64,000 nucleotides of DNA, from positions 62,001-126,000 of the forward strand of contig QPGO01000198.1 in assembly GCA_008632985.1 (NCBI GenBank), read 5' to 3'. Made by a program: the position numbers and the translations under genes. The number at the start of each line of letters is the position of its first letter. Position 1 is the first letter of the stretch. The notes under the pieces are model-generated. The model ran no database searches. It was not told the DNA's origin and was given only the letters and a program-made list of their open reading frames with translations. Shown here in pieces: positions 1 to 62,949 of this stretch. The DNA comes from Psammoneis japonica (Eukaryota).

Positions 1-3000
1 AACAAACAGTTGGGCGCTGGTGCAACCAGAGTCGACGGCCGGGGTGTCGGCATGAACGGTGTCAGTGGCGACAGGCTCGTTGCGGCGGTGCACGTTAAGG
101 GCGGGGTTGGGTGATTTGTAGGCCTTGCGAAGGTGTGTGCCGGCGGGCATGCGGGCGTGCTGCGTGGTGCAGTCAAAAGTGCGACGGACCGCATCGGCAG
201 GTAGGAAGCCAAAGCAAGGCCGAAGAGACTCGAAGGGGGGGTCCTTGGGCTGTACAGTGCGCTCCGGAGGTGGAACGTCATCGCCCTTGGGGTCAATCGC
301 ATGCAGATGACACTCGTAGAACACGTCATCGTTCGGAATGAGGTGATCATCGAGGGCGGACGCGTGATCGGCAGACAAGGAAGCGGACAAGATGGTCTCG
401 TTGACAACGACACGGTGACGGCAGTTGCCGCATTCGTCAAATGGGTTGGCAGTGGGATCGTCCTGCAGGTCAGAGATTGCGTCGTGCCACTGGTCGTCGT
501 CAGTGACAGAGTGATCGAGGACGGAAGGGTCCCATGTGTCATCACCGGTGAGGATGACATGGGGCAGGGTGTCCCATTCGGCGTCAGTGCAAGGTCGCAT
601 GGCAACATAAGGCAGGCCAGCCTTGATGTCAATGGGGATGACATAGCCATCAGGAGTGGCAATGCGTTGCAAGCCGTTGGGCACCTTGACAGAGCGATCG
701 TTGACATCCTGTTTGTGCCATTTGAGCTGGCCACAGGAATGGATGGTCTTGCCCTTTCCCGTGCATGCATGCTGATGGAGGATGGCGATGACGGGACCAC
801 GCTGGGTCTCAATGACGGCACCAGCGGTGACAATGGGGATGTCCACCAATTGATGATCGTCAATGCCCTGAACGTCGACTTGGCGAGAGGTGCGTGCAAT
901 GACGCGAACGTCGTCGCCAGCAATGCCGCCGTTGGCCCCACGATCGACTAGAGCGCCAGTGCGTGTGGAGCGATGAGCAGAGGCAGAGCAAATGACATTG
1001 TGGTTGTTGACGCGGCGGCAAGTGCGGCCGTCAAGTTCCATGTCATCTGCAGAAGCTGGCGGGGTAGAGGAAGCGGCGGATGGCCCCGGTCGACTGGCAT
1101 TGGGGGCTTGGTTAGGGGACAACAGACGTTGCAGATCACCGGGTGGCAGTGGCTTGCGCTTGGTGAGGTGCGCCAGGATGGGATTGTCCGAAGTGGCGTC
1201 CACATGTGTGGCGGAGTCACCACAGTCAGCAGGAGTCGTGTTGGACAAGTTGACATCTCCGTCACTCCCAAGGTGTTGGTCGTGAAGGTTGGCCGTAACA
1301 GACTCATGGCAGTCACTGGCTCGCGGGTTGCGGGGAGGCGGACGACAGTGCTCAAGGATGATCGCCTTGGAGGAATCGGGCAACGAATCCCAGAGCCGTT
1401 GGTGGTCGGGAGGGAGACGTCTCCATTGGACACCGGTGAGGCTGGGACCGCGGGTGTGGGCAGCATTGGCTTGAAGGACGTCAACGTCGCTGTCAATGTC
1501 ACAGAACACATCGTCGGACGGTTCCTCGGAGCAGACGTCATGTGCGCACATGGCGCGTCGGGGAGCTCGAGGTGTCGTCTTGGGTTGAAACGTGCTGTCG
1601 TACTGAGCTGCCGCGGAGAGGAGCAAGCCACAGCATTGATCGTATGTGAGGCTCTTGCCACTCTGCGTACGATGCTGATCAGCTTGGTTCTTGACAGCAC
1701 GGAGTTCCTCGACAGGGTGCACGGCATTCTCGAGCATGACGCGCTTCTGTCCTTCAGAGAAGTGGTCACTGGCGGGGATGAGTGCCTCGCACTTGCGCAA
1801 CTGATCTTGCCAATGAAGGATGAACCCGTGGGTCGGACCTTTCCAAGTGCCATCACCAAGACGTGCGGTGGTGAGGTACGTGAGCAGGGTGGAGGACTCG
1901 ACAGATGCACGGGTGGAGGCAAGCGCGCACTCAGACAAGGAGCGGCAGACGGTCTGTGCGTCAGAAGACCCCACATTTTCGCGAATGAGAGCCTTGCCCT
2001 TGTCGGTGAGAAGGATGCGTTCGAAGACGGCGAACATGCACTTTTGCTGTTCAGCAAAGAGCAGTTTGTCTTCGGGGCTGGTCGGTTTGTACGACGAGTC
2101 TAGAGTGCACTCGACGTCTTGGGCACGGGCTTGTGCCACAAGTGAGGTGTGCCAAGTGTGCCACTGCTTGTCGGATTTGAGAGCCGTGAAAGCGGTGGGA
2201 TCACGCTTGATGCCTCGCTTGAAGTCTCGCACCGGGTCGCGTGCCTTGGTCGGGTTGGCGACATGTGGAGGTGCAAGGGGTGAGCTGCCGATGGACACAG
2301 AGGACATGCAGTCCGGGCTGAGGCGGCAGGCAAGGAACTCGTCATGCGTGAACAAAGAGGAGTCGTTGGACGCGTTCCAGGTCTAGGTGGGACCTCGTGC
2401 TGCTGAACTGTGACATCGACAGTTTTTTGAGTCTCGTCGTATGTCGCGCACGTAGATTTCTACGTGATTTTTTCGATGTTTTGTGTCATTTTACGGCACA
2501 CTTGTTGAGCGATCCGTCCAACAACTTTTGACATTTTTTGTTACAGCGCGATTCTACAATGTCTTAAGAATCGCGTAGGGCAGGCGAAGTTGCAAAAACG
2601 TCGAGTGGTGAGAGGCATAATTGCACCACAAACTTGGCCGTTTATTTGATGTTGAAGATGAGTGTGTCCATTGGTTAAATTCTCGTACTGCGGAGCTCGC
2701 ACGTAGAATTCTACGGGCCCAATGTCACAAGGAGTCCCACCCAGGGCTGGAACGCGTCATTGGCAACGTCAAGACCTTTGTGTGCTTTAACAATGTACAG
2801 GCCAACTAGTGCTGCTAACATGTTCTTGCAACCACGGGGCAAAGGGATTGCACTGGTGCCGTTGTCGCACTCAAGCGAGTCGATTTGGGGCGGTGTGAAC
2901 GTGAACAGTTCCTGATGCGAGTCCGTGCCGTCTTGGGCCAAAGCCAAACGAAGAGGACTCCCAGCACCTTGGGCAAGCACAGTTCCAACAACGTGCTCGA

Positions 3001-3034
3001 AACCATCGGTTTGTTGCTGACGAGTGAGAACCAT
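1..3034 (-). pseudogene. gag-pol polyprotein of the copia element, interrupted by a MITE and carrying Tyr->Cys/His substitutions
   Basis: ATG at 3034 (MVLTRQQQ...). Removing 2369-2758 plus one TSD copy rejoins ...GLDVAN|DSSLFTHDEFL... in frame. The frame appears to stay open to the window edge. Confidence 0.88.
2369..2758. mobile_element. Non-autonomous DNA transposon (MITE) inserted in gag
   Basis: Imperfect TIRs: GACGCGTTCCAGgtCTaGGTGGGAC on the left and, as reverse complement of the right end, GACGCGTTCCAGccCTgGGTGGGAC. 4-bp TSD GTTG (2365-2368) / ATTG (2759-2762). Excision restores the gag frame. Confidence 0.88.
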
Positions 3035-3506
3035 GGCAGACAAAAGTGGTGTCAGGACAATCAATTCTGGTTGGGAAGCGAAGGTAGACTCGAAACTTGG
3101 GTGAGAACAGACTTGACTTGAAACAGACTTGACTTGAAAATCTTGAACTATCTTAAAATCAGAAGTCGCCGGGCTTTGTTGTCCCGTTCGTTGTCAAGTG
3201 CTAAACTTCCTGTCCGGTCCGTAGAGTTGTGCCGGCACGTCCGAACCCGCAGCCAGCGGCGCTTTGGGTTGCTTGCGAGCGGAGCAGCGGGTTGTAAACC
3301 CCTGCAGGTGAGCTGACTGGAGGTGGACAAGACCCCCGAACCGTTCTCATTTTGTGTCGGTTGGATTTCCCGATCAGGCTGGCCAGTTGACGCAGGCATT
3401 GGGCGCTGTGGACGAACGAACAAACGCGGGAAAGCACCCTCGCCCCAACGCAGGCTGCAATCACGGCTGCTTGCTCTCACAGTCGTCCTCGTGGACCTGG
3501 CAGAAC

Positions 3507-4148
3507 TGTAGAGCACCAGCAGTCCGGGGCAGATCAAGTGCAATGGACTCGGTGTGCTTGTAGAGTGGCAGCAAAACCGCAGTCCGAAGAGTGGGCACAG
3601 GTTCTTGGCCGTGAAGACATGCACACATGTGTGTGTCTTCAGCGACTAAGATCCTTGAATGTGTGGGGTTCTTGACCGTCAACCGAGGAACAGGTGTGTC
3701 AAGGGATGTTGATCAAGGATGGACTTGGATGTGACCGTTGAATGCATGTCTTCAGCGATCAAAGGTGGCACAATCAATCCAGATGTCCAGCGGTGAGGAG
3801 ACTTGACGGTGACGTTAACTTCCTGCCGATGCCCTGGTGTTGAATGCGCGTAGACTTGCCGATGTATGTAGAACACACACGGAGGTCCACGTAGAATTGA
3901 AATAGCGTCGTTGGTAAATCAACGACGACGATGGCGGTTGCTCAATGGGTTGACAATGAGCAAGACTGTCAATCTGACAGAAATTGAAGGCAAATGGCAA
4001 GAATTCAAACAATGACTCCTTGCTGCTGTCTAAATGGCAGATGAGTCTCCGCTCAGAGACCGTCACAGGAGCCGAAAGACGTGTAAGTCGGTATAATCGG
4101 GCTACTGTTATTATTCTTGTGAGCCTTGTGGCTCGAAAGCAAACTACA
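3507..4148 (-). repeat. Putative 5' LTR of the copia element
   Basis: Bounded by TGTAG...CTACA inverted termini and located upstream of the gag 5' UTR, which has CAAGTC repeats at 3105-3135. The second LTR is outside the window and no canonical PBS was recognised. Confidence 0.6.
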
Positions 4149-4940
4149 TCGCGCGTGAACGCGCGGAACTAAAGCACACAAAACTGTGCGCGGTAAACTA
4201 AACAGCGCGCGATGCTTCGCGCGCATCCAAATCCTGTTCAAATCCTGTCATCTGCCTTTCGAGAATTTGCAGAGATTTTTGTCATCAATTGTCCTCATTG
4301 ATGCATTTTTTTACATTGTCCATTTCCAATTCGCGAGAACACCTGCACACACAAAATGCGAGTTACAAGGCAAAACAGCAATGAATGAGAGCTTGTGGGC
4401 CCACATGCTTCGAATCGATGCGAGTGTGCACTGTGGACTTGCCACGCTGCTGCCGTTGCAAGAGATGAGATGGCTGAGTGATTGACTTGCTGCACACAGC
4501 TGTGCATGCACTGCCATGCATTCTTCCCACTCTCATTCCAATGCACACCAGTGCAGCATTTGTCAATGGCAGGAAAGTGGCCATGACACTGGGAAAAATC
4601 ACTGTGAACATGCAGGTGCACAGGCACCACCCAGTGCACTGCCCATGTGGTGGGCATGTCATGCATCTCCATCTTCATCTTCAATGCTGTCAAGAAATTG
4701 TGGTCCAAAATGCAATGGCCGAGGCAGGAGTTGCCTGCTTGGCCTTGTGGCCATTCACCACATTGATGCTGTGCCTTGCTTTGGCGGATGTCAGCAAATC
4801 CGTTTGCGAACAAACCCATGAAGAAATTCAAAGACCTTGCCAGCAACAAGCACGCAACAATGGGATTGGCCTCAATCCCCAAATCCAGTGCACACTCATG
4901 TGCATCATTCCATTGAAGAAATCCTGGAATCGACCCACCA

Positions 4941-5470
4941 CAGCACAATCCAAATCACACCCACATGTGGGCACATTGTCAGTCAAGTTGCAGTTGGCTC
5001 CATGCTTGGTCAGATGAATCACAGTCATGGCAAAGAGAATCCACAAGGTCCTGGCCACAAAACAAGCAACAGTCAAACAGCTTCACATGAAGCACATTGC
5101 AATGGACAACATGAAGCATTCATCAACCCATGAATTGGAAATTGTGACTTCCAAAAGAAAGGGAAAAACAACCAACAAGTGCTCAAAGGCAATCACAACA
5201 ATGACAAACCACTTGACCACATGAAAGCCTTGTTTGTGACCCCACACCATCTGCCAGACATGCACGGCAATGGGGGTTGTTGTTTGTGCCAATCCCATCT
5301 GCATCTCCATGACAATCCAGAGCCGATCCACAAAAATCAATGTCAACCAATCTTTGTTCCACCAAACAATGCACTGAATCTGTGGTGATTGTGTGTCAAA
5401 CTTGACCACATCTCCACAATGATCCATGGCTGCTGCAGAACAAACCTCTTTGTTCCACCAAAACAAAGCA
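4941..5470 (+). repeat. Dispersed repeat, copy 1 (copy 2 is split between 7373-7778 and 9584-9745)
   Basis: GCACAATCCAAATCACACCCACATG...GCATCTCCA matches 7373-7775. GAGCCGATCCACAAAAATCAATGTC...AACCTCTTTGTTC matches 9590-9730. Confidence 0.9.
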
Positions 5471-7372
5471 GCAAAGGCAAAAATCACTCTGCAAAATTTC
5501 TGCAGATGTGACAAACAGAAATTGCCGTGCCAATCTTTCGAAAATTGTTGTCGCTTTTCCATTGTTGTCGATCCTTTTCAAGAAGCACAATGTGCTGCAT
5601 CTCAGCACGACATTGCTGCATCTCATTGCAACTTTGCGACTCTCAATCTCAGTGTTGTGGCTCTGCTCTTTGTCAAAATGGGCATGGGTGCAAAGGAGCA
5701 CCCTCGCCATCTTCCCAAAAGTTGAACATGTTTCAACAGAACACGCCAACTTGCTGGAATGGGTTTGCGAATCATGCCCACAACAGGAAGAAGCAATGTT
5801 TAGATGCACATGTTGTCTGTTCAATGAGAGTGAAGAAATGCGAAAGAACGTGCCAACTCGAGTGGGGACACAAATGTGTCCACAGTGCGTGAGGGGACCG
5901 AGCCACAAGAAGGGTCACGATTCCACGTGCCACAGGAATCCGAATGTTTCCAATTGCCATCCACCAGATGAACTGACTGTTTGGGTTCTGAAAGAAGTGA
6001 AGCCCAATTTCCTTCTGGCACTGCCAAATGAGTGCAAAAACAATTTGTTCAGGAGGGGTCTGTTGGAGAATGCATTTCTTGCTGCTCAAGACGGCGGCGG
6101 ACTGCTGGGTTGCTCGGTTCTAGACGGCTTGTGGGAAAGCATCCCCGCTGTGGATCCATTGCATTGCTTGGCTTCCACACCAAATGATGGTTTGCAAACA
6201 CCGCCTTTGCTGGACCCAAATCTCTCACTCGTCAGCCCAACCAATGCGAAGGCGCACGCTTGACCGACAATGTTGGAGTTGCTGATCCGCTGGATTTTGA
6301 ACATTTTGGTCCAGACTTTGAGTCAACAGTGGAAGACATTTTGTGTGAAAAAACTCTGAAGCAAGGAACAACTCTCCACGAACTCCCATCATTGCCCTTC
6401 CACCCAACAACAGCTGCAACATCGATTCCATGCTCGGCTCTCGCGTGTCAACCGGTCTCCATTGGAGCACCAGAATTTGCCCCCCCTGCTTCTCTGACAC
6501 CAATGTCCACTGCTTGTCAACCCAAGAGACAAAAAAACAAGAGAGCAAGAGTGCTGCTGTGAGGGAAGAAAACATCGCGTGGAAAATGGTCTCTGTGGGC
6601 ACGTCGCTCACACGTTGTGGTGCACGAGAGAAAAGCAGGGTTTTCTTGTTTTGCACCAGATCTTGTTGTTCTTGCTGGCATGTGTGTGTTGGCATGAATT
6701 CACCACACTGCCACAGCATGCCATTTGTTTCATAACAAGCCATTTGGAATTGGCAACCAATGGTGCTGCAAATGTGCCACATGCTCTCGTAGCATGCATG
6801 GATTTCACCCATCCGAAACATCAAACACAACAACAACAGCGCCAGCGACGAGCAAGCGAGAGTGACGCAAAAGCAAAAGCAAAGCACGCACACCAAGATC
6901 CCACAATGTGGAGATGTTGAGTGGCCAAATGTTGCTGAGGTGGAATGATCAGAAAGTTGAAGTTTTTGTCAAGTGTTGATGCATCACAATGGGGGATTGC
7001 TGAGTCACAATTCACTCAAGACATGATGTGATTGGCTGAAAATGCAGCGTGCAAGAATGGGACAACCTGGCTCCCAACTGGGAGGTTTGCAGCAGCAGTG
7101 CTCTGTGGAAGAGGGAAAGAGAAGACTTCCCACGACCGGGTCACAACACACCGTGCAATTTTTTGGTTCCTGGCACAAAAACAAGAAATTCCACGCAGAA
7201 TTTGTGTGGCCACCATGGCAAATTTGTGTCGAGTCCACCGTCATTGTCACTGTTCTTCACAAGGTGAGTCACTTGGGATGTTGTCGGCATTTGTCCACTT
7301 TGAGCTTGTGTGAATTATGTTCAAAAAGGATTGTCGATTTGTGCATCACCTGGGGCTGGAACAAGTCTGCCT

Positions 7373-9745
7373 TGGCACAATCCAAATCACACCCACATGC
7401 GGGCACATTGTCAATCAAGTTGCAGTTGGCTCCATGCTTGGTCAGATGAATGATGGTGGCAAAGAGAATCCACAAGGTCCCAGCCACAAAACAAGCAACA
7501 GTCAAACAGTTTTGCATGAAGCACACTGAAATGGACAGATTGTCAAGCTTGACAACACAAAGCATTCAATGATGCTCATCGTGTTGATCGACCCATGAGT
7601 TGGAAATTGTGGCTTCCAAACAAAAGGGAAAAACAACCAACAAGTGCTCAAAGGCAATCACAACAATGGCAAACCACTTGATCACATGAAAGTCTTGTTC
7701 ATGACTCCACACCATCTGACAGACACACGCGGCAATGGGGGTTGTCATTCATGCCAGCCCCACCCGCATCTCCACAATTGGATGCTTTGCTGGACGGCTG
7801 TGTCTTGTCATCTGTGTGAACATGGAGTTGAAATGGAAATTCTTGTGGAGAAGGACACCCACAACATTCTTGGGCTTTGCCACTTGTCTGCACACAAAGA
7901 CTTTGAGCCAATGACACGTCACCAACAATTGGGTTGTTTCGTTGAACTTCAGAGGAAACTGCCAATTTGAGGACAATCCAGTGTGGAGTGAGAGATTTTT
8001 TCTCACTTTTGAACAACAACTTGAGGGCCAGCTCTGCAGATGATTTGAAGGAAATTGACAACAAGAAGTGCGTGATTGCATCTGGGCCTGGTGGTGGCGA
8101 TGCTGGACCAAAGGAAAGCAACCCATGCTGTTGCCACCAATCTTGACAGGAAGGCTGTCAATGGTGGCACTTTCAAGAAGGTGCTGGAGGGAACACAGCC
8201 AAAGCCTCTTGCACATCCATCCACAACCCTCGCCATTCTTGTGGTCCATGCCAGCAACCTCAAGTGGAAAAAACGGAGCATGAGCCATGAGCACACGCAA
8301 GTTTTCCAGATGATCTGTCAAAGAACATTTTGTTTGCAGCTTGTCAAGATGCTCAAGGCATGTGGACCCACTTCTCAAGCTTGCATTGCCACACATGGCC
8401 ACACCCTCTGTGGCACCAATGAGCCTCAGCAAGGAAGTGGACAAAAAAAGGGAGGCCAGCCAGCAGCCAGCTGGCCGCTGTCAGCTTTTTTGATGGAGTT
8501 GGGCAAAAAAGGTGCTTCTTTGGAAGATTTGGAATTGTTGTGAGGATTGACAGTTGTTGGGTGAGGCCAGCCTCCTGTGTTTTGCAAGTTGAGCCCGCTG
8601 TCCAGAGGCATGAGAAAAAGGCAGGGGGGTCTGCCATTTTGCATGGCCCAACAAGGGAGAGAGACATGATGTGTTGTCAAATTTTGTGCCCCTTCTTTGG
8701 GGGCATGTTGACAATCAAACTCCAAAAATCAGCCAGGGCATGCAGACAACCCAGTTCCCAGTTTTGTACAACAATGCAACAACTGCACACAAGCTCTGGG
8801 TGGGACAATTGAGAGCCTGGTTGTCAACAAACTTTGACTGCAGAGAGACAATTGCTGGGTTTGTGTGGTTCTGTCCAGAGTGACAACAAGAAAGGAACTT
8901 TGTCTTTGGGAAGAAGCTTGATGGCAGGAACATGAAGGGCATGTCATTGGCATTGAATGATTTCCTTGGTTGTTTCAGGCTCACAAAAAGAGGGCTTTAA
9001 GAAGGCTCTCAGGCTCCTGCACTGAAAATTGCCATGCAAGGCACATTGCAGCCAAATGTTGAAATCATTGGACACTGATTTTTAAAATGATGTGGCAACA
9101 ATCATGGCTTGCATCATGTGGTTGTCCTTTTTAGGCACAGAAACAAGGGGGGTGAGTTGTTTGCGCCGATTCCTGGTCTGAAAGCAATCGTTCGCCACAA
9201 AGCACAAAATCCAAAAATCCATCTTTTAACCATCTCACAATGGAGAAGAAGTGGCATCTTGTTCAAAGACAAAGGTGAGCAATTGAAAAACAAAAGCAAT
9301 CGGCATTTGAAACATTCATGACTGATGACCTCAAAATGGAAAAAAACAGCCAATCGATTGGCCAGGAGTCAATGGCATCCCAACCCAAAAATGACTCAGG
9401 CAATTCAAAATTTGATGCATTGCACATCAACTCACGCAGTTGTTTTCATGAAGTTCCGAAGCCTTTGAAAGTCATTGGATTCTGTTTCGTGTGCAAAGAC
9501 CACATGCAACAAACCCCAACTTTGTCTTGCCCGTCTGTCTCCGGTCCAGCTGGGGTCAGGGCAGGGGGGGGAGACACAGATGGACAATCAGGAGCCGATC
9601 CACAAAAATCAATGTCGAGCGATCTTTGTTCCACCAAACAGTGCACTGAACCTGTGGTGATTGTGTGTCAAACTTGACTGCATGTCCACAATGATCCATG
9701 GCCACTCTGCAGAATGAACCTCTTTGTTCTGCCAAAACAAAACAG
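7373..9745 (+). repeat. Dispersed repeat, copy 2, interrupted by a ~1.8 kb insertion (about 7779-9583)
   Basis: Homology to 4941-5470 stops at about 7775 and resumes at about 9584. ACAAT is present at both junctions. Confidence 0.75.
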
Positions 9746-10701
9746 CAGCCAGTGTGATTCAAGCTGCGGCCAAGGCAAAAAATTGCTCCTCCCCAGTTGA
9801 TTTGCCCAACAAAACCCAAGAGTGCCAATGTCTTGCTGATGATCAATCGGACACAAGTCAGGACATCAAACAATGACTCTGGGAAGAAATTTCCCAAAGA
9901 GATGGTGAACTGCCGGTCAAGGATGTCAAGAAAGCTCCAGGAGACCGTGAAGCTGTCATGGCTGCAACTGATGCCATGCAGGAGGAGTGGCAACTTGTGG
10001 TCAGTGATGGTGTGGTTTGTCAACTCGAGTGACATGTGCTGTGCACTTCTGCATTTTCAAGGTCTCTGTTGCTGTGGGGTCGCATGACAGTTGGCTGAAG
10101 TGAACATCATGTTGCGCATTGTTCGCAAGGAAGTCCTTTCACCAAACTGGGAGTGTTTGGCACTGCAGTTTGTGCGGCATGACAGTTGGGGATGCCAATG
10201 TCAGCTTCAACGTTGTGGCTGCTGTGCGCTTTGTTCTTCTCTTTGCTGCTCCAAAATTGCAGCAACATGTTGCGGTGGGCCAGAATTGCGTGTTTGTGCA
10301 TTCCAGCAAAAAATCCTGGCCACCTCCTAAAACCTCAATCGACCCCTTTCTAGAGCTTTTTGCTTCCTCCCTGACCCACAGCAATGGCAAACTGTGCTTC
10401 ATCTTCACCATCCTCAACTGTGATCCTTCTCTTTCTGCATTCCCCGCTGACGTCATCGTCATCAGGCACATTTCTGTCTGTTCCCTGCACAGTGCGTTTG
10501 ATGTTTTCCTGTCAACAGATGCCATGGTGGAAGTTGGGCAAGCTGCATGATCAGCCTTGACTGCCATGTCAGGAGAGTCATTGTGAGTGTCACAACGACT
10601 GGCCATGTTGGTGCTGGGCTGCTGCTTGGAGAAAGGTTTTGTGTCATGTGCCTGGCACAATTGACAACACGTCTTGCTTGACACCCGCGAAATCAACTCC
10701 T

Positions 10702-13058
10702 TCACCGGTTGGCACAGGGCTCATGTGCCAGCTTTCTCTTTCTGCTGACATTCACAGCAAATGTGCCAACAGTGACGATGACAATCAGCAACAAAGTTTT
10801 GTTTTTGGCTTTGAAAGCCTCGCCTCCTGTCACTTTCAAGAAGGCAGGCTCCTTGTTGTTCTCCCAGCAGACAACACTCACACCATCTTTGTTGTGAGGA
10901 GGCCCAAAGCACTCTTCACTGATCTTTGCCACAGACTGCCTCAACAGATGTTTTCTTTAAGAAAGGACACAAACACCATGCTGCATTTGACCCTGTGATT
11001 GATGCGCTTGAAGACATCCTTCAGAAGTGAGGCATCAACACCACTCCTGCAGTTCTTGCACTCAACAACCAAGAATGGACTGTTGGTGGTTGTGGGGCTG
11101 TGTTTGTTGCACATCCTGCTGTTGACCATTTTGTTGTCTGCATGCCGGTCAAGGAAGCCAATGGACACGTTGGGCAGGTCGGCAAGCTCTGTTGGAAGGC
11201 CAGAATTTGAGCCACCGAGCGCAGGCACGTCAGGCCAAATGAACTTGAGCTCATTGAAGAATGAAGGAGCAGTGGGTGCTTTCTCAAAGAATTCTTCCAA
11301 TGGGAAGGCGCGAACCAAAGGCAGGAACTCCTTCAGTGACATGCCACCCAAACAAAGGGAATCATTTTTTTGTAGACCTTCATCAATGCCAAGGTCAAGG
11401 CCACATGAGCTGGAGCCTCCAGCAAGTTCCCATCACTCTTGGTTGCATGCTCGATTTCTGTGAATGGCTTGCTGTTGAAGAGATCTTGGCATCTCATGCA
11501 TGCTCCCCTCACGGTCAACGGTTTGCACGGCTTCTTGAGTCCATCGATCAGTGGGAAAAGGGGTTTGGCGTTTTCTTCCAGCATTGCCTTGGTCCATGTC
11601 ACCAGAGCCAGGCAAAGCAACGGCTCCGTCCTTGCACAAACGGGTGCTGCCTCGAGCTGCTTCCCACAGTTTGAAGCCTTGACACACTTGTGGCTTGCTC
11701 TCCCATCATCACCGCCCTGCACAAGCCAGCCAAAATGATGACCAACAAGCTTGTGAGCAGAAGCAAACCAATCTCCTTTGATTTCGACGTCCATTTCAAA
11801 CAGTTGCGCCAGTTGCAAATCTGAGCTTTCCGTCCAAGCATGGCTCTTGCACTGCTGCAACGCACATCAGATGACACCCACACATTCCAGCAGGCTGCCA
11901 TCTCCCTTGATGATTTTTGCCTTGGCCTTTGCCAGAGTCCAGGGTCGCTCCGCATCCCTCCAAAACAATGGTGGTCTGTCCAGCCCTGGAAATGGTGAGC
12001 ATTTTGGAAGCGCAGACATGATCCAAGTCCACACATCAATTGACTTCCGGGATGCTGCTCCAATGCAGTCTTGTGCTCCTGTGTGGGTGCTCATCAAGAT
12101 TGGAGCAATTCCAAGGCATTGAAGGGTGTCCCTCAAACAAAGAGCACACTTGAAGCGGCCATTGTTGCCCATGGGTGGGACTTCGTTGAGAAAAACCAGG
12201 AACTTCTTGCCTTGTGTGGCAGCTTTGAGATCTCTGAGCTTCAACACACTTCACGTCATCCCATCGAAAAGGCTTCCCAGTGAGCAGGTGATGGAGCAAG
12301 CGGACACAGGCAGAATGGCCCTTGTCCTGCTTTTTGGCCCATTGGGTGATCCCGTTTGCTGATGGGGTCATTGCTTTGCGGCCAATCATTTCAATGAACT
12401 TGGCAATTGTTTCCATCAATGGCTTCGAATCGTGAGGATGGCAGAAGCTTTGATCGCTGTCCTGGCCCATGTTCAAGCAGATTGTTTTCGCCCCTTCGAA
12501 GGTGAGACTTTCAGTCGCCGCCAACTGAGTTTTCCCAGTTCCTGACGAGGCAATGATGCAGATGCAGCAGTTCGGCCATTCAACATCAACTTCCTCTTGC
12601 ATTTCTGGAAACTCAGCTTCAATTTCCGCTTCCTCTGGTGCAACCTCTTGTTGGCCCAAGAGAAAATTAAGAAGATCTTGGGTGCCTTCAGATCCACCGC
12701 TCTCAATTGCCCCTTGAATGCAGTCATCCAGGCCATGCCATTTCAGTGGCGACTGGGGAAGGAGGGCATTGCAGCAGCAGCCAGATTTTTCTAGCCCATC
12801 GAGCAACTCAAAGTTGTTCAATTCAGCCTCAACACCCAGTGCCAATGCAAAACAATCCTCCTTCATGGCCTTGCTCAATGTTCGGTGCAAATGATCTTCC
12901 TCTTCCATCAGTCTTTCCAAAGCCATCAGAGGCACCGCCCTTGGTGCCTCTTTCACGGCAAGGATTGTTTCTTCGTTGTTGAACTGGAGAGATGACCCCA
13001 CCCAAGACACCATGGCACTGCGACGCTGCCGCCGCTGCCGCTGCTCTTTGTCACTCAT
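10702..13058 (-). pseudogene. Crinkler-like P-loop NTPase + restriction-endonuclease-fold pseudogene
   Basis: Walker A IIASSGTGKT, Walker B-like FLVFLNEVP, ILMSTHTGA and C-terminal FLVVECKN. Several frameshifts, and Tyr is essentially absent. Confidence 0.65.
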
Positions 13059-14586
13059 GAATGCAACCGAGGAATGAAATCTGAAGCAGCAAGACTTTGT
13101 TTGTTGTTGCCTTTTGTCTTGGTGGCATGGAGGTTGTGGCAATGTGAAAGCAAACAAATGAAGGCAGGTTTGGCAACAAACGATTTCCAGATTTCAGTCA
13201 ATCAAATGGGGGCCTGCAGTGCCGCAGAACCTGGCATGACTTTGCACACATGCTTCACCGTGTTTTTGGATGAGGAGCACAAAAGATGCAGCCATGGCAG
13301 CCAAGCTTTGTTTGGGCGTGTCAAAGCAAGTTATGTTGTCTGTTGCATTGTCATTCGTTGCTCACTGGATTTTGTGCAGTTCAAGTTGGAGGGAATGGGA
13401 AGAGACACAACACTGCTTTCCACAACAAGAAGAGTCCTTGTCAATCCAAGCTGGAGCACAGAGTGGCGCACGCAGCTGCTTCTCTGACAAATGACAGACA
13501 AGCACATTGATGATGAAACCAGTTGTTGTTGTTGTGCTTGTTTGTGCTCAGCATGTGTTTTGGACACATCAACAACAGCACCCACAAAATGCAGCACAGC
13601 AACTGGTCATCAGCTCAAAGTTTTGTGCTCTTGTTGTTCTGCCAAAAGAGCCTCTTCCACCCAGACATCTCCATTGCTGCCCGCACGACTTCCATGTCAA
13701 GGCACCCTGATTGCCATGCAGTCTGGGGTGGTCCATGTTCTTTGCAGGGCATGCATGAGCTTGTGCAAATGAGCAAGAGAGAAAGGGGTTCTCAGATGAC
13801 AGCTGGCGGCAACAGATGCTGGTCTCCCACAAAAGGGTGCAAATGAGATCATCAGCGGAAGCTCACCTTGTTTTCTTTCATCCAATGAGCACAAGAAGCA
13901 ATGGGTGAAGCTGTTGCAATCACTGATGGTGCAGGAGACAAAAATGCAGCCACAGGAGCCACCCAAACCTCCAAATCAGCATCCTCCATGGCAGCATCAA
14001 TGGAGCTGAAGGCAAGTGCAGAGATGTGCTTGCCAGCCATCATCCATGTCCATCATGCCCACACCACAAACAACCGTGATTTCACACTGAAAAGCATGAA
14101 AAAGCAGCATGACAAGTGAGGGCCAGCTGGGGGATCATGGGGCACATGAAAAATGATGCTCCAAAGCAACAAAACAGTGGCACAGCATTGTGCACTTGCT
14201 CGCTCACATGGTGTTCTCCACCAGATTCTGTCATGCAGATGTCAAAAACAACAACAACGATTCTGCTGGTGTTGTTTGTTCATGCATGTTGCAATGCAAG
14301 AAATGCCAACATGACAGCCAGTGAGTTGTGAAGTGGCAACAAGATGGCAACAACACAACAAACTGATCCAAGCCACCATGACACACCTTGCCATGTCAAT
14401 GATCACTCTGCATGGTGTTGGGGCACTGTTGATCGCAATGACTCCAAACAGCAACTTGCCACATTGGCTGTCTTTTTGTTGGTGAATGCGCTGCACTGCA
14501 CACAAAAAATGCGTGCACGTTGCTGTGGCAAACAAAGAGTCAAGCAATTTGGCAATGTTGTTCATTTCACTCAGACATTTTGGTTG

Positions 14587-14712
14587 TGATTTCTTTCATG
14601 ATTTCTGGTGATTTCTTGCATTTTCTCTTGATTTCTTGTGCTTCTTGCAATTTCTCATGCTTCTTGGAATTTCTTGTGCAATTTCTCTGGATTTCTTGTA
14701 ATTTCTCATGCT
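14587..14712 (-). repeat. Degenerate tandem repeat (ATTTCTY-rich; coiled-coil-like EKLQE on the minus strand)
   Basis: Repeated gatttcttg / caatttctc units about 10-11 bp apart. Confidence 0.6.
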
Positions 14713-14994
14713 GATGTCTTTGTGACACATTGTCATCAACGTTGTTGAAGGATGAGAACACATGCCATGATGCTTTCTCCAGATGATGTGCTTTGAAAAA
14801 GGAATTTCACATGAGAGGCAATTTTGCAAACACATCTCCTCCTCCCCACTTCGACAAGCACATTCTTTAAAATTTGCCTGGGCACATTCTTCAGACATCA
14901 AAGAACATGCCCAGCCTGTTGTCATTGTCACAAATGAAGAAAACAGAAGGCCTTTGGCTTTGCAAAACAGGGAGCATGAAACACCAATTTTGCA

Positions 14995-15101
14995 GAAGAT
15001 CACACGTAGAAACTGTGCGCGCGACATGCGGCGTGATCCAAAAAACTGTCAACGTTGCAGCTCAGCAGTGCAAGGGGTCCCACCCAGAGCTGGAGCTTGT
15101 C
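14995..15101 (-). mobile_element. Degenerate terminus of the same transposon family as the MITE at 2369-2758
   Basis: Aligns with the reverse complement of 2369-2475 (CACGTAGAAA..GCGCGACAT.CG...CAAAAAACTGTC...CAGCAG...GGTCCCACC.AGA.CTGGA). Confidence 0.8.
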
Positions 15102-15270
15102 AACAGCCAGAAATTCTGCCATGTCTGTCTCTTCTCTTTGCACATCTGCAGGAGATGGCAGTCATTTTGGATGGAATGTTCTGTGGCAATGTGGGAGATG
15201 CTGGAGGTGACAACGCCATGGCGGAGGCAGGTTGCACAGGAATTTTGAACAAAAACACCACACTTTCAAA

Positions 15271-15491
15271 CAGTGTTGACCAATTGCCAGGATGGGTTGC
15301 AATCAGCCTCGCTTTGATTGCAATCACTGTTGCAAACTCAACTGCAATCACCTGATTGTTGGGAACGAGCTGAGGTTGCAATCACAATTGACTGCTGCAA
15401 TCAATTGCAATCAAAATTCAAGCTCCATTTCCAGCCAAAAGACTGATTGCAATCTGATTGCTGCAGAAAACTTTGCAATCAGTCAACACTG
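15271..15491. mobile_element. MITE with CAGTGTTGAC terminal inverted repeats and internal GATTGC/GCAATC repeats
   Basis: CAGTGTTGACcaATTGC ... GCAATcaGTCAACACTG, with CAAA on both flanks as a putative 4-bp TSD. Confidence 0.8.
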
Positions 15492-16899
15492 CAAAGGGCC
15501 AGTGTGGCACAACCAGAGGTCACTGGAACACAAACAAAGTGTGAAAATGCATGTTTTCAAGCAGGGAGAACTTGTTTGCATGGTCGTTCAAGGCTGGCAA
15601 GGTGCTTTTGCAGATGACAACATTGACAGATTTTTTTTTGTGGTGTCAAAATTAATTTCAACACCACACATGGTGTTGGCTTCTGATTGGCTTTAAAAAT
15701 TGACAGCAAACACATGCAATTGAGTGCAACATCTTCAACTGCCAATTTTGTTTGTGCCTTCATTGGCGATCATCTGTGAAGTCAATGCATGTCACATGCG
15801 ACATCATTTGACAATGTTTGGTGATGATTGTCATTGCATGCAGAGTGTTGAACTTTCTCTGTGCGGGATGTCCCAGAGGGCATGGGAACAAATGAGAACA
15901 AATCTCTTGCATGCAACCTTGGCGCACCATCCATCTTGCATCTGCGACAGTCTGTGAGGAAACTTTGGGTGTGCAAAGCACACACCACAACCATTGACAC
16001 ATGGACTTGCAACAGAGAGTGATGCATGGCAAGGGGCAAGTTCTCCCACACATGGGTCAGAAGTTCTTGCAATGAAAACTGCAGTTGAGCAGATTGAGGC
16101 CTTGCATTGCAAGCTTTGAGGCGCAAGCAGCAGGGATTGTGCAGATGGCTTGGGAGGATGAACACAAAAATCTGGCAGATGCACTCACCAAACTCATGCC
16201 CAGGCCAAAGCCCTGGGAATTGATTCATCACATGCTGTGGTGAGTTGGTTCATCCAAAATGGATGAGCTGGGATTTTCCTCTAAAAACAGAGGGGTTTTG
16301 CCCACCCCAAACAAAGTTGGAATTCTCTAGAACAGGGCGGCAATGTGGGGGTGCAGGTTGTGTCAAACTGACCCAACTGTGATTGGTGTCAGCTCAAGAA
16401 GACTGAGTGATTCCAGCCATGCTGCAGCCAAATGAGCACTGGGACCATTTGGCAAAGACTGCCGCTGTCGTGTGAATGGTGGGTGGCACAGAGCAGCCAC
16501 TTCAGTGTGTGATCCCTTGGAGCAACCCTCACAATTTCCAGAATCCTGTTGACTGCTGTGCAACACTTTTCTGCCATGTCTTGTCAATTTTTGGCAACTG
16601 GTGTGGCACAATTTGCTCAGTTGAGAAAACCAGGCTCACAGTTTGTCCCCCCCAGGAGCATGTGGTGCACAGTCATTGTGTTGTTGCGCACAAAACTGGG
16701 AGCTGGGTCATCTGCATCTTTTGATTGATTTTTGGTGGAGTTCTCTTGTGAATGAAACCCAACACAGCAACAGGAAAGTTGACAACAACACATGTCTCTC
16801 TCCTTGGGAGCCTTGTGATGTGAGACAAGCCTTTCCTCATGATGAGATGCCTCAAGACAGCGGACTCAACTTGTGAAATGTGCAGGCACTGACTTCACC

Positions 16900-17090
16900 C
16901 AACAATGGCCATCAGTCCTGCCCTCATCAACTCCAAATCATCCAAAGAAATGTCTTCCAACAGCTCTGGTCCCTCAAAAAAGCCAGCAGTGCCACTGGTC
17001 TCTTTCATCTTCACATCCTTGTGTTGGCTCATCATCAGAGAGGGTGACAACCATGGGAAAGCTTGAGAAGTGGGCCCACACGCCTGTTGA
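16900..17090 (-). repeat. Diverged inverted copy of about 8355-8560
   Basis: The reverse complement contains TGTGGGCCCACTTCTCAAGCTT...CACCCTCT...ATGAGCC...CAAGGA and TTTGGA.GATTTGGA.TTG, as at 8360-8540. Confidence 0.7.
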
Positions 17091-17857
17091 CTCATCCCCA
17101 GCTTGCTTGATGTGAGCATCTGGGCAGGCTGCAATCAAAATGTCATTGGACATCTCATCTTGAAAATCCACATGCTTGCACCTGGTGTTCCACTTTTTTC
17201 ATTTGGGGTTGCTTTTGCTTTTGGAGCAGGGGACAGCCAAGGCCAGCGGGTGGCGGCTGTGGGGGTTGGGATGAGAGGTGGCAAGAGATTTTGAGTGTGT
17301 TCCTTCTGGCACCTTCTTGAAAATGCCATTGCTTTCTGGTGTCACCAGGCCCAGACACAACCGCGTGCTTGTTGATTTCCTTCTCACACATCATTTGCAA
17401 GAGTGTGTCATCTGCAAGAGTTGTTCAAAAGCACGGTGCTGAAAGAATTTCCCTCCACACTGGATCATCTTTAAATCAGTGGTTTCCTCTCTGAATTTGA
17501 TGAAACAGTTTAGCCATTCTTGATGCCATTGTTCAAAGTCGTTGCGGACAAAGAGCAGATGCTCTTTTGGATCGGTGGCATCGAATGTTACATCTTAAAA
17601 ACATGTCTGTTGTGGAATTGACACGGTTGCACTGCTGCGGCGGGCGGTCGCAAAACCCACCCGAGAGTTTCTGCGCACGACGAGCACGACTCGCACGACT
17701 GACAAATTTTGGCAGCAGACGCAGAACAGCCGCGCCGCATGCACTCGAAACTCGAAAGTCTGATTTTTTCATGAGTTTTGTGCATTGTAGGGCCTCAAGT
17801 TATTGTTGGTGGTTGCAGTGTGCTTGTTGCGTTTGCCGAGTCTCTCCCACAATTGCA

Positions 17858-34168: not shown

Positions 34169-35009
34169 GTTTTCAACAACAACTTGCAATCAATCAACCA
34201 ATTTCGAGAAATTGTGCCACCACCGTTGACAAAAAAAGCCAATGCGCCCAATAGGCGAGCTCACAACGTGGCAGACGCGGTGTTCATCCTGCACGCACCC
34301 GTAGATTCAGTACGGAGCTTTTCGTTGAAGGAATGTCCTTGTAGCTTGCTGTATTGATTCTACACAACGTCTATGACTCCACCATGATCAACTGCGACTT
34401 TGAGACATTGTGTTATGTATGCAGTTGTCAACGACAATGACCATGACCCGCATATCTTGATAACGAAAAGTCATTGGGTTCAAATAATGACACAAATTTT
34501 ACACAAAGCTTTTATGTACTGTAAATCCCTTTCGACATTATTTATGAGCAGTCTTGTCCCAGAGCACGACACATAGGCCCTAAACTTCATTTTTTCTTAA
34601 TTTCGGATTCAGTACTTATGTAACACCACCACACGAACAAAGTCAGAGAGTTGCCACGATGACCATGACCAGCATTTTCGAATCAGCCAAACGATCACAG
34701 TAGAAATCTAGAGATTGGTAGTATAAACATCAAAAGTCATTGGATTCAAAAACACATTTATTTTGGACAAAGCATTTATGCCTCAGAATGAAAGTCATTA
34801 CGATTGACAAGCTTCCCATTTATGCCGGTAAAGAGGAATGTGTGCCAGAACTGTCATCATAAACCTCAAACCTCCTGCTTCCGCGCGGTAAAGAGGAATG
34901 TTGTACTCTAGCTAGGAACTGTTAGGACCCCATTTCTGCACATCATTCAGGGTTAGTCTTGTCGACTTTTAGCAGGACAAATCGTAGAAGGAATCTGTAG
35001 AACAGACAA

Positions 35010-38000
35010 ACACGTGCAGATGCGTCAGAAGGGGAGCGCTGACAGGGATGTGAGAGTCACAATCGAGTCTGCATGTTTTCCTCCGTCAGCGCACTTGAAG
35101 TTGCTTCAAGATGGTTTTCATTTTGGATCCATGCGCTGCAGTGCGGCACACAGACACCTTCCTCGTCGTCTGTTTGCGTGGGGGTGCACTGTGCGCTTCT
35201 TTGAGATGGCTGCAAGCCAGGCAGTTGCCAGAGAGCCATGCAGCACAGGCACGCAAGCAACAGCTTTTGCAAGCTCTGGCGGAGGGCGGCACTGCAGGCA
35301 GCTCATCATCATTTGGCTGCTGTTTCTTGCACCTCATTTGTTTTCAACCCAGGTGGGTCGTCACTTGGAGACAACAGGCGAGGTTTCCTGCACATTTCTG
35401 TGTGACGCACACTTTTTTGCACACCACAGCCGCCCATGTGCAATTTTTGCACTCTCCCATGCAGTGTTGCCATTTTTTGTTTTTCTCACATCCACAAATC
35501 TTGCACACCAGACAAAGGCACGATGTTGCTGCCATGAAGAAATGTCCATTTGCACACAAACATCTGCCAGGGCTGTGAAAGCAAGAGCACAGTTGTGAGC
35601 TGGTGGCAAGAAAAGGCTGGAGGCTGGTTGATGCAAAAAGTTCACCGGGGTGTTNGCGTGTGGTGATATGTCCACGTAGGCGATGTACTAGTTGATTCAA
35701 TGGTTAAGACATTAAAGTGCCCACTGAGCGAGCGAGATGGTAAAGAGGCTTACCGGTAACCGTCAGGCAGTATGACGGCATCTCATCTATTTATGTAGCT
35801 CGCACTTTGGGTAGGATACATGACATATATCGTGTTGGACAACCAGATGCCGATGCTACTGACAAGGTGTTAGTAGTATCGGCATCTGGTTGTCCAACAG
35901 GTGTTGCTGTGGCCAGTGGTGCATTTTGTCTTGTGGGGACATTTTTGACCAGGTTTGATTTGTGTTTTTATGATTTGTGTTTTCATGACACATTGGAGTG
36001 GTTGCTTTGACATTTCATGCCAACATGTGCAGCACCTTGGCACTTTGATGCACTTGGACAGATTGATTTTTGGCGCCGGTGACAGAATGCCCCCACTCTG
36101 TTTTTGAGGAGGGTTCAAGATGACCAAGGAGCTCAGACATGAGTGACGTGTGTGTCAAACATTGTGAAGCATGACAATGGCACCAACAACATCCAGATTT
36201 TGCAGCCCACTTGCTTTGTTGCAAAACAGAGAGCAGAGTTTGTTGTTGTTTAAAAACATCAGAGGTTCTGCCACAATGTTCGGCCAGTGCACCTGCTTCT
36301 GCCAAGCAACCATTTCATTGCAACACAGTCAACAAAGTCAAAGACTGCCTTTGCAATGCTGGGCATTTGCGCTGGTGAACAAATCTGCTGGCTCTTTTGA
36401 GGGCCGGCGGCCGCACAGAAAAATGTGTGTGAATCAGTTTGCCCGAGTTTTTGCACCAACACAATGGTGCCAGAATGGTCTTTTTTTGCACGAGTTCATT
36501 GCAAAACAGAGAAAGCTGACATTCTTTTGAAATGGTCAAATGCAACAAGAAAAAAACAGAAAAAGAGCAATTCAAGAACATCATTCCAAAAGCTGCCACG
36601 TGCAGTTTCCTGCCACTTTGCTGTGGAAAAAAAGGGACTCTGAAAGAGCTTTGTTCTCTTTTTGTCTGCACCCTCCAACAAACAAAGAAGGTGGTGCCAG
36701 TCATTGAAAGTGAACAGATCTGATGAAAGATGATGCAAAATGTTGGGAAAAAGCATGAGCTCAGATGAGAATTGTTTCTCATGCAAAAAGCATGGTGATG
36801 GAAAACAGATGAACACAGTGTCACACCCGGCAACCAACCCCAACCTGGGATGAAAACTCATCACCTCGCCAGTCTCCCAGTTAAAGAGAGCACTGCCCAA
36901 AGGGCAGTGTGGTGCAGCGCCAAAGCCAAAAAATCAAAAGTTGCAGCTTTGGCTTTAAAAAAGCAGCAGATCATCTGTTGCAATGCAGCAGCTCTTGCCT
37001 CACATGCCAAGCAGGCAGTTTTAGCAAAAGCAGGTTGACAGATTGCAGTTGACTGCAGTTGCAAGAACATTTCTCCTGAGCTGGCACACCTGGCTGAGAA
37101 ACATGAAGTCATTTGAGCACTGCATTTTCTTCATGCAATGGCGTGAACATGTTCATTCACGAGTGAAGAGCAATGCTCCAAGTTTGGCTTGGCACTTGGT
37201 GAATGCTGCACAGTGCAACATTGTGCACTCAGGATTCTTTTCACACATCCAAGGTGCAACGTGCAATGTTGATGGCCAGTCTCTGCACAACCTCTCAGCA
37301 TCACGGATCACTCACAGTTGAAACCCACACTGCAGTCTGCTCCACAAGGGAGGAGAGACATTTGCATGTTGGCAGTTGTGCCAAGGATCACACAGCAGCA
37401 ACTTGTGCAGGAAAATGTTCTGTGACAAAGAGTTGGATGTTGAAGGAGCAGACCTGCTCCAAAGCACAACCTCCTGCTGCACAAGCACTTTGGCTGCTGC
37501 ACAGCTGCACACAAATGCACCACTTCTCTGCTTGCATTGATGAGCTCTGAGGCACATTTGGCACAGTGCTTTAAAGCACCCTCTTTGGATGAATCCATGT
37601 GCGAAGCTTGTGTTTCTGCTGGCTCTGCTGCCCCCCACTGTGTTTGTGACTTAAAAAAATCATGAGTTGTTTGAGATCTGCAGCACAGCACTTTGGGCAA
37701 TGATGACCCACATTGCAGCAATTGTGGCTGCAGCTGTGCTGCTTCTAAGAAGCCCTTGGCTGGGGGTGCTGTGCCACCCAAGCTTTCTCCCAGCTCTTGT
37801 GGCAGACAGGGGGCTGGAGCTGCTGTGTCATTCATTGGTTGGTTGCAAGCTTCAGATGGGGCCCAAAATCCTGGAGCCACAACACCTTCGCCAACCCCGT
37901 GTTGCCTTTGGTGCCAAGGTGCTTGACCTTGTTCACCAGAGAGGTGGTGCTCCCTTGAGATGAGACAAAGAGGTGGCATGGTGTCAACCCCGCTGTGTCC

Positions 38001-38390
38001 CACAGGATTTTGGAGCAAAGAATGGGCAGTTGTGCAACAGGCAGGATGTTGTGGGGGAGGCCATTTTGGGCTCATCACAGACTTGCACCAATGGCAACCC
38101 TCCATCTCCCAGGATGCTCAATCCAATGGAGGGGATGTTGCCATTTGTTGCCACTGGGAGGCCAACATGCATGACCCAACCTTGGACAAATGAGTGGAGC
38201 CAGAACTCTGTCTGTTTTTCATTTTGCCACACAAGCAATGGGCAGCTGTCTGTGGCCTCTCAACTGAGAGCAAGTGTGAGATGATGGGCTCAACCTCACA
38301 GCAGACCTGCTCCAACACATTGGGCTTGAGGTCAGCACACACAAGAGATGGAGCTGAGAGCTGACAGCACCAAGCACAAAGTGGCCCACG
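35010..38390. other. TpA/CpG-depleted degenerate block, containing an N at 35655 followed by a ~240 bp TA-rich island
   Basis: TA is nearly absent except at 35656-35900, and ORFs are Cys/His-rich. Confidence 0.9.
35833..35899. repeat. 32-bp inverted repeat (hairpin, 3-nt loop)
   Basis: TGTTGGACAACCAGATGCCGATgCTACTgACA-agg-TGTtAGTAGtATCGGCATCTGGTTGTCCAACA, with two mismatches. Confidence 0.95.
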
Positions 38391-38680
38391 GTACGCTCGC
38401 GACTCGCGAGAGAGACGCGCGTCTACCTTTCGATGCACGTACGTGGTGCTGATGTCGGCGGCAAATCTTGCAAATCTTGGATCTTCCCTACAAATCAACG
38501 TAGATTTCTACGTGAGGTTCTGAAAACATGAGAACACTCGTCAACACACTCAACTTCATTCAAACTCGCGATGCCAAAAGCCAGTTGAGGAGGTGTTGAA
38601 GCCAACAAGACGTTGCTTCGCGTTCTCATAGAGAGATACGACTCAACAAAAACGACAACAACAACAATAGATAAGACTCG

Positions 38681-38717
<37 letters not shown>

Positions 38718-38718: not shown

Positions 38719-38731
38719 GACAACAGTAAAT

Positions 38732-45779: not shown

Positions 45780-46174
45780 AGGCCGTGAAAGGGGCAAACT
45801 GTAACAGATGCATATCTTTTCAGGGTGGAAGCGGATGTAGTCATAACATCTAGCAAGAATACCTAGAATGATTCATCTAACGTAGACGCTTTTCTACCGT
45901 TTCATCAGTAATTGCAGAAGATAATGTTTTATCATCAAGTCTTAATATGGACAGATGGAAATCGCTTTCCTTACCCAGGAAAATTATTCTAGCAAGTCCC
46001 TTGCCCTTTGTGCTTTTATTCTGTCCACGACGATTCTACTGGAAGATGGATGGACCAGACGATTCCGTCACACAGTTTGTTGGATTGTCACTTTTCCGGC
46101 GCGCAACGGCTAGAGAGTCTTCGAAGAGTGGCACGAATTCCTGAGCACAAGTGGAAACAGCATCCATAAAACGC

Positions 46175-48995: not shown

Positions 48996-49563
48996 TGCCA
49001 TGTATTGTAGTTTTGTCGACTAATGACTCTCTACTCTAGCTAGAATAGAGTTGAACTTGTATGTCGGAGGAACAACTGGAACACTCATTGCACATTATTA
49101 TCTTCCCTGCAACTCTACCGTACACATTATTCAGGAAGCCCATGCTACTCTACTTAAAAAACAAAAAGGAGATACCAAAGCAGCAACACGCAATAAACCC
49201 TAAAGACGAATTGTGTCGTACGAATGAACGACATGCAGCCGCATGTCCAACACGTATGATTGGAGTAAGATGTCGACCCATCTCCTTGCTTTATTGCGCC
49301 ACACGAGAAGAGAGCGAGTCTTGCTCTTTAGCAGTCGAAGAGAAGCTGGAAGTTGTCTATGGGTTGTGGTTCTCCTACATAATTTAAAGTTTTCCTATTC
49401 TAACCTAGTCGTAGCATCCATCTTGCATGTAATATCCTGACCAAGGGCTACTACGTACCCGTGTTACAATGCTAAACGATGCAATCACCACAAGAGATTA
49501 CAAAAACAAGTCTTTCTTTGAATTGTTTGATACATTCAGTAAGCAAAGCTTGAATAGCACCTG

Positions 49564-50748: not shown

Positions 50749-50981
50749 GTTGATGAGTTTCTGGACAATCACTTTTAGTAGATCGATCAATCATGCCAGT
50801 TAGTTCTCTACACTAAGAGGGGAGAGGGTGAATTTGCAGCTTTCGGCTTTCGTTTGCAGAGATGCGATTTTGTGAGAGTCTTGCAGAGTCAGGGCGCATG
50901 CTAAGTAAAAGTTAACGGTCATGACTGAGAGTTCCAGTCTTGGCTTTCGCGACTGAAAGGAGCAACAGCTCAAATTTGCGT

Positions 50982-62722: not shown

Positions 62723-62949
62723 TCTGTTGTTCTTTCTTGTTTCTTGCTTTCCCCAGGTTTTCCCACTTCTCCAAAATCGAGCAATGCAACATTCAAGCAC
62801 AGACATGTGTCAAAATCGAATCAGCAATCAACTGTGGGCATCCGTTCATCGCGTTTGTGATCGCAATCCCGCCCGAGGGAACCATCGCACGGTCGTTTGT
62901 GCACCACAGTCAAGTGGTGAACGCCACTTTTCAGTGTGATGGGAGGGGT

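Follow-up and report, generated by a model that had tools for sequence, protein, structure and literature searches.

TpA-free islands in a diatom-like genome suggest a region-limited TpA to TpG/CpA mutator of the kind described in Bigelowiella natans

In a 64,000-nucleotide stretch of the Psammoneis japonica assembly (contig QPGO01000198.1, positions 62,001 to 126,000; hereafter the window), five islands of DNA have lost nearly all of their TpA steps (TA) to TpG and CpA. The direction of this change, its specificity for TpA, its regional limits and its independence from CpG loss can be read directly from the DNA. The explanation we consider likely is a mutator that works on DNA, is confined to certain regions, converts TpA to TpG or CpA in the manner described for the chlorarachniophyte Bigelowiella natans, and has acted on top of CpG decay in a diatom-like genome. 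The islands, to which no strand applies, have the following limits, with borders read from the list of TA positions across the window:

4365..17472: main island, TA-free and CpG-poor, 24 TA in 13.1 kb
35000..38392: second TA-free island, interrupted from an N at 35655 to ~35900
46167..49003: third TA-free island, CpG observed/expected 0.09-0.37, flanked by a DDI1-like gene and a FUT8-like gene
50913..52515: fourth TA-free island, with the FUT8-like gene on one side and an NDUFAF7-like gene on the other
60950..64000 (border ~61000): fifth, TA-depleted island, CpG barely depleted, continuing past the end of the window

Counted per kb, the observed/expected ratio of TA is 0.01-0.05 across 5-17 kb, 0.03-0.08 at 36-38 kb and at 46-49 kb, 0.01 at 51-52 kb and 0.03-0.12 at 61-64 kb, compared with 0.36-0.73 in the window's ordinary DNA. 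The original prediction, made from the letters of this DNA, had estimated about two dozen TA in the main block and named four further TA-poor stretches; the count is exactly 24 in 4365-17472, where 499.9 would be expected from the density of flanking, ordinary DNA (Poisson P ~1e-176), and all four further stretches are genuine, with ratios of 0.01-0.12. The enrichment of TG and CA that it described is likewise present, at observed/expected values of 1.5-2.0 inside the islands. AA, AT and TT are little changed, at 89/55/80 per kb in islands against 82/63/82 in ordinary DNA, in keeping with its argument that these steps remain common and that the pattern is not general GC drift. The majority of island borders are less than 100 bp wide, and the right edge of the main island is a zone of ~500 bp with intermediate TA density. 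Nearby genes had been counted among the targets, but the host genes adjoining the islands retain normal TA.

In four of the five islands CpG is depleted along with TA (observed/expected 0.09-0.6). Relative to ordinary DNA the islands differ, per kb, by -35.9 TA, -34.8 CG, +39.5 CA and +29.6 TG, so that a loss of 70.7 (TA plus CG) is balanced by a gain of 69.1 (CA plus TG). Two decay processes therefore feed the TG and CA pool, and ordinary CpG decay supplies about half of the excess, a contribution that the original prediction had missed. In a simulation on ordinary DNA from the window, 94% of TA and 63% of CG were replaced, with a random choice between TG and CA at every site; the four main dinucleotide changes were reproduced by construction, and the directions of the shifts in the other 12 dinucleotides were predicted (r = 0.84), the observed shifts being larger. 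Deamination of 5-methylcytosine, with its loss of CpG and gain of TpG and CpA, is therefore evident here, and in four of the five islands it explains why CpG was lost and where about half of the added TG and CA came from; however, it is incapable of removing TpA and leaves the TA loss unexplained. TA loss also occurs without CpG loss. In the Copia-type retrotransposon copy at the left end of the window and in the 61-64 kb island TA is strongly depleted and CpG stands at an observed/expected ratio of ~0.6-1.05, and TpA loss is therefore independent of CpG decay; it seems to run ahead of it.

The direction of the TA change can also be followed in three coding remnants, for which protein homologues are available:

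10708..13109, minus strand: frameshifted pseudogene of an uncharacterised family of ~800 amino acids, found by tblastn against proteins P0228-P0236
60133..62563, minus strand: second P-loop gene remnant, whose homologue is an 863-amino-acid MMETSP transcript product
1..4250, minus strand: Copia-type long terminal repeat (LTR) retrotransposon copy, with the LTR at ~3100-4250 and the start of the polyprotein near 3034

In tblastn the pseudogene in the main island aligns with residues 25-805 of P0228 (31-52% identity), and a P-loop NTPase with a Walker A motif forms its N-terminal part. At the 11 columns where at least five of seven full-length homologues carry Tyr, it has Cys eight times, His twice, Phe once and Tyr never, and the control columns are kept (Trp 7/7, His 6/6, Cys 6/6, Gln 8/8, Leu 56/64, Gly 18/20). 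A Seminavis robusta protein that is 82% identical to part of the pseudogene has Tyr at several of the positions where the window has Cys. The open frame of the Copia copy (1-2382, 794 amino acids) extends beyond the window and has 104 relatives at E <= 1e-5, one of them annotated in Phaeodactylum as 'integrase catalytic domain'; its residues comprise 1.0% Tyr, 3.3% Cys and 4.7% His, compared with ~3.5%, 0.8% and 3.3% in these relatives. Its 18 conserved Tyr columns, those where 60% or more of 47 homologues have Tyr, hold Cys in nine cases, His in two, Tyr in five, and Trp and Phe in one each; control columns are again kept (Phe 10/11, His 8/8, Leu 28/30), and three control homologues retain Tyr at 19/23, 19/21 and 23/23. 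The destruction of Tyr codons that had been foreseen is thus plain, conserved Tyr having given way to Cys or His at 10 of 11 columns in the pseudogene and 11 of 18 in the Copia frame.

Copies of the Copia element differ among themselves in the same way. The window's sequence was found in four runs, all from one sample and one study, in which it is kept as 31-mer contigs; no RNA run is listed as containing it. The contigs of run X1 differ from positions 1-20000 of the window at 423 sites, of which 355 are transitions. Among the 21 best-supported variant sites listed for the Copia part, 11 are TA against TG or CA and six are CG against TG or CA, and among the 19 listed for the main island 11 are CG against TG or CA, with two adjacent pairs of CA against TG; copies of one family have therefore lost different TA and CG sites. 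Mass balance, the replacement of Tyr by Cys and His in all three coding remnants, and this TA/TG/CA polymorphism among copies agree on the TpA to TpG/CpA direction that had been proposed.

The same contigs bear on whether the loss is real. A sequencing, base-calling or polishing artefact, in which a base modification confined to the islands makes TA read as TG or CA, would fit the extremity of the depletion, the fact that CpG, a known methylated site, is also affected, and the origin of all sequence-containing runs in one sample. We regard it as extremely unlikely. The 31-mer contigs of run X1, which at ~48-59x need accurate reads, are also TA-less, with 0-23 differences per 0.5-1.6 kb, which speaks against the raw-read artefact that the original prediction had named as fatal to it. 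Moreover, the same Tyr-less signature occurs in ENA, Logan and JGI records and in a named Seminavis protein, the Cys and His codons are located at conserved Tyr columns, and the corresponding changes in B. natans are, according to the main text of the preprint describing them, heritable in Illumina data (bioRxiv 10.64898/2026.01.13.699255).

TG and CA are about equally frequent along the islands, with local swings only, and both Cys and His outcomes are present, from which it follows that both strands are affected. This bears on RNA A-to-I hyperediting, in which ADAR or ADAT enzymes favouring U before A would edit transcripts that are then reverse transcribed and reinserted. One of the targets is an LTR retrotransposon, and its Tyr losses lean towards Cys (9:2, and 11:3 in the related case P0126), as A to G on the sense strand would give. 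However, such editing predicts A to G on the sense strand only and retroelements only, and what we find is change on both strands (His outcomes, TG about equal to CA, Val to Ala), full depletion of DNA that includes non-retroelement P-loop pseudogenes and long non-coding stretches, one border inside a frame, and islands that are contiguous for up to 13 kb across unrelated sequence. Hyperediting of RNA is accordingly a very unlikely source of the islands. More broadly, ADAR, ADAT2-3 and APOBEC3 resemble the process seen here in being deaminases that cause transition hypermutation against repeats or viruses, and ADAR and ADAT share the T(U)-A context, but they act on RNA or single-stranded cDNA and leave marks on one strand, whereas here both strands are changed, and in non-retroelement DNA too.

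The border inside a frame is found in the second P-loop remnant, which has one frameshift and one in-frame stop. TA depletion begins within it, at ~60.86-61.0 kb: above 61,000 five codons that specify Tyr in the homologue specify His in the window, where one Tyr codon is present; below 60,860 there are eight Tyr codons in the window, and the homologue shares three of these. CpG density is equal on either side. A border lying within a gene-like frame argues for mutation in place, limited to a region. It also argues against selection or origin as the cause, that is, against elements that arrived or evolved TA-free, for instance as an escape from a nuclease that cuts at TA or from insertion at TA targets. 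Sharp borders do fit inserted DNA and the Copia frame is open, but the affected genes are frameshifted pseudogenes, functionally conserved Tyr residues have been replaced, a border cuts through a gene, and copies of one family differ at their TA sites. Open frames are in any case expected of a process that makes no stops: the longest island frame (385 amino acids, with a Walker A motif and 14 relatives in a HMMER search) has a length that is reached in 3.5% of composition-matched simulations, attainable by composition because TGA is the sole stop left. We judge a TA-free origin to be highly improbable. At 948-2103, within the Copia copy, open frames of 383 amino acids run on both strands over the same DNA, because TA loss removes TAA and TAG from both.

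The TA that survive in the islands are not a random sample by context. YTAR (pyrimidine-TA-purine) makes up 37 of 50 remaining sites, compared with 15% in ordinary DNA (Fisher P 3e-19). Expressed against ordinary density, survival is 0.4% for RTAY, 2-3% for RTAR and YTAY, and 27% for YTAR.

The mutator that we think probable would therefore be described as follows. TpA would be converted to TpG or CpA, i.e. A:T to G:C on either strand of the palindromic step, within silenced islands made up of mobile-element, pseudogene and unannotatable nuclear DNA. The conversion would approach saturation, would be faster than ordinary CpG to TpG/CpA decay and would be separable from it, and its flank preference would leave RTAY the most fully erased and YTAR the least. 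Stops would never be created, and TAA and TAG would be destroyed or turned into TGA; with TAA and TAG lost, frames would stay open and the proteins would fill with Tyr to Cys or His and similar missense changes. We infer that targeting follows chromatin state, namely silenced DNA, and not copy number. The original prediction had called the mutator repeat-targeted and the main block a 13 kb repeat block; the targeting of repeats finds partial support here. The mobile Copia element is indeed affected, but only in part (1-4250: TA observed/expected 0.18-0.38, with normal CpG), whereas the pseudogene at unique depth is fully depleted; single contigs of run X1 over the main island have a unique-like depth of 48-59. 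The repeat block itself is not evident in the window, where a self-BLAST of 4.4-17.5 kb returned just four short internal similarities.

The agent would be a polynucleotide adenine deaminase of the ADAT2/TadA kind, acting by A to inosine to G. The natural target of ADAT2/TadA is the A after U33 in tRNA. Because TpA is palindromic, A to G on one strand is indistinguishable from T to C on the other in all results here, and a thymine route would leave the same traces: a TET/JBP-type dioxygenase would oxidise the T of TpA to 5-hydroxymethyluracil (5hmU) or 5-formyluracil (5fU), which mispairs with G and gives T to C. Dinoflagellate DNA carries 5hmU preferentially at TpA and on repeats. Against this route, we encountered no evidence of a 5hmU/5fU-type base or enzyme in diatoms, no dedicated genome search having been made, and the Bigelowiella authors, in the main text of their preprint, prefer adenine deamination, on candidate genes only. 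We consider the thymine route unlikely, and adenine deamination is the reading that we carry forward.

Several observations weigh against a Bigelowiella-type mutator in this genome. Of 80 metagenome loci whose products are related to the Copia frame, only one has a TA observed/expected ratio below 0.1 and two are below 0.3: L051 stands at 0.02, another at 0.27 and the other 78 at 0.44-0.94, many of them CpG-poor. The most repeated element of the window, Copia, is also the least depleted. Ancestral states were inferred from protein homologues at 31-52% identity. Most island DNA is without recognisable origin, and a mobile or foreign nature is shown for part of it only. The Cys:His ratio varies between cases, at 8:2 in the pseudogene, 9:2 in Copia, 11:3 in P0126 and 6:6 in L051, and the outcomes in the second P-loop remnant lean to His, unlike the Cys-leaning cases; we draw no strand rule because of this variation. 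Finally, all runs containing the sequence trace back to a single sample, and they may be the very data from which the assembly was built.

The signature is rare, yet it is not private to this assembly. L051, a 2447 bp locus on an environmental contig, belongs to a different Copia family (40% identical), has a CpG observed/expected ratio of 0.31, and keeps none of 20 conserved Tyr, six having become His and six Cys. Tyr is scarce in records P0126 (ENA) and P0227 (Logan) as well. Literature searches turned up no description of TpA erasure in diatoms, and the main text of the Seminavis genome paper contains neither 'dinucleotide' nor 'methylation' (term search).

The closest precedent is that of B. 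natans. The original prediction knew of no named pathway, but the same mutation has been measured there: according to the preprint's main text, two integrated viral regions mutate ~1000-fold faster than the remainder of the genome in mutation-accumulation lines, and 230 of 231 mutations in these regions are A to G or T to C, all of them on TpA (bioRxiv 10.64898/2026.01.13.699255). An ADAT2-like deaminase is proposed as the agent, from candidate genes only (Mettrop et al., bioRxiv 10.64898/2026.01.13.699255). As far as that main text describes them, the two cases share the change of TpA to TpG/CpA on both strands and its regional character, with adjacent DNA ordinary; the B. natans genome also has clusters of 1-kb windows that are TpA-depleted and enriched in CpA plus TpG, as here, and its depleted coding sequences are enriched for reverse transcriptase and DDE domains, which we count as a further likeness. 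They differ in host, a chlorarachniophyte there and diatom-like here, and in extent: the hypermutable region derived from a nucleocytoplasmic large DNA virus still contains 3.3% TA by the preprint's account, whereas the islands here are saturated at ~2 TA per kb. The targets here are an LTR retrotransposon and P-loop pseudogenes, without recognisable viruses. CpG co-depletion and a flank rule that spares YTAR are seen here, and the main text of the preprint does not contain the terms 'CpG', 'diatom', 'context' or 'flanking' (bioRxiv 10.64898/2026.01.13.699255). Its evidence is a de novo rate from mutation-accumulation lines, whereas ours is read from sequence alone.

Repeat-induced point mutation (RIP) of fungi likewise hypermutates by transitions, is limited to regions, runs to saturation and disables mobile or duplicated DNA within the genome. 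In chemistry it is the opposite: RIP changes C to T at CpA and thereby creates TpA and stops, whereas in the islands TpA disappears without any stop being made, and we accordingly find TpA nearly absent, CpA enriched and frames lengthened. The hosts are unrelated, and RIP is triggered by duplication, a dependence that we do not regard as established here. It is possible, and we suggest it tentatively, that diatoms and chlorarachniophytes share a chromatin-guided enzyme system that edits resident double-stranded DNA at TpA, with RTAY as its preferred site and YTAR spared, as a defence equivalent to RIP. It would remove TpA entirely from silenced mobile or foreign DNA and would spoil proteins without closing their reading frames. 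Such a system may use an adenine deaminase or a thymine oxidase, and may be old within the SAR (stramenopiles, alveolates and Rhizaria) supergroup.

If a Bigelowiella-type mutator does operate here, a TpA-specific, region-targeted DNA mutator would exist in a second major algal lineage, one with genetic tools, and an observation from a single-species preprint would become a wider phenomenon, to which the flank rule, the separability from CpG decay and the border inside a gene would add material beyond the Bigelowiella data. For annotation, the loss of TAA and TAG leads to long spurious open frames on both strands, a trap for gene callers, and element proteins that have become Tyr-less and rich in Cys and His can lead gene predictors and homology-based repeat annotation astray. 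The base-editing field, too, would have an interest in a natural enzyme that turns A:T into G:C at one defined dinucleotide of double-stranded DNA.

The pseudogenes in the islands belong to two P-loop families of 780-860 amino acids (P0228-P0236 and P0249), whose only BLASTP overlap is the Walker A motif; both are pseudogenised in the window. In each, including the family of the main-island pseudogene, the C-terminal part looks like a PD-(D/E)xK nuclease, judged from its motifs. The P-loop family gave no match above cut-off in Pfam and PADLOC and nothing in a sequence-profile search of PDB, and ESM Atlas offered no more than unnamed eukaryotic clusters and AAA_22-like leads below 0.9. Its AlphaFold model has a pLDDT of 62, with generic AAA+/STAND ATPases as the only Foldseek matches, and a comparison of the P-loop families with viral contigs produced a single weak match of 80 residues. 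A housekeeping gene is merely 42% identical to its Seminavis robusta counterpart, compared with 82% for the pseudogene piece, a contrast that hints at a mobile or transferred element.

For the Copia part, the summed contig depth in run X1 is 68,000-158,000 against ~50 per unique contig, which implies a thousand or more copies at a likeness of at least 90%. Three tiny runs of the same sample contain the Copia part only. Ribosomal DNA was ruled out as the identity of this very deep part (1-4250), because Rfam gave 0 matches in the entire window.

Around the three small islands no terminal repeats defining an element were found. A Pfam search of 180 stop-to-stop frames from the islands and the Copia part, and nine more, gave only weak matches below curated cut-offs, and a tandem-repeat scan of the window gave nothing bearing on TA loss. 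In the second island the N at 35655, an assembly gap, is followed by ~220 bp (35667-35877) with normal TA density, and this patch holds a 32-nt near-perfect hairpin (35833-35899); a recent insertion or the joining of scaffolds may account for the stretch at 35655-35900.

Among the genes of the ordinary DNA, the NDUFAF7-like frame at 53077-54471 has named relatives that are all diatoms (38-47% identity), as are the other named protein relatives found for the window, and the remaining identified genes are ordinary eukaryotic ones. A duplication of ~650 bp in ordinary DNA (40837-41494 and 43367-44017, 79% identical) has kept 40 and 34 TA in its two copies; between them, TA to TG/CA differences number nine against three in reverse, too few to use. 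A tandem array at 32071-32460 consists of 3.7 copies of a 78-bp GC-rich unit (91% matches) and lies in a minus-strand frame of 351 amino acids. The acetyl-CoA synthetase frame at 38675-40762 (plus strand) meets a stop at 40097-40099 and then resumes in the same frame, which is probably due to a short stop-containing intron.

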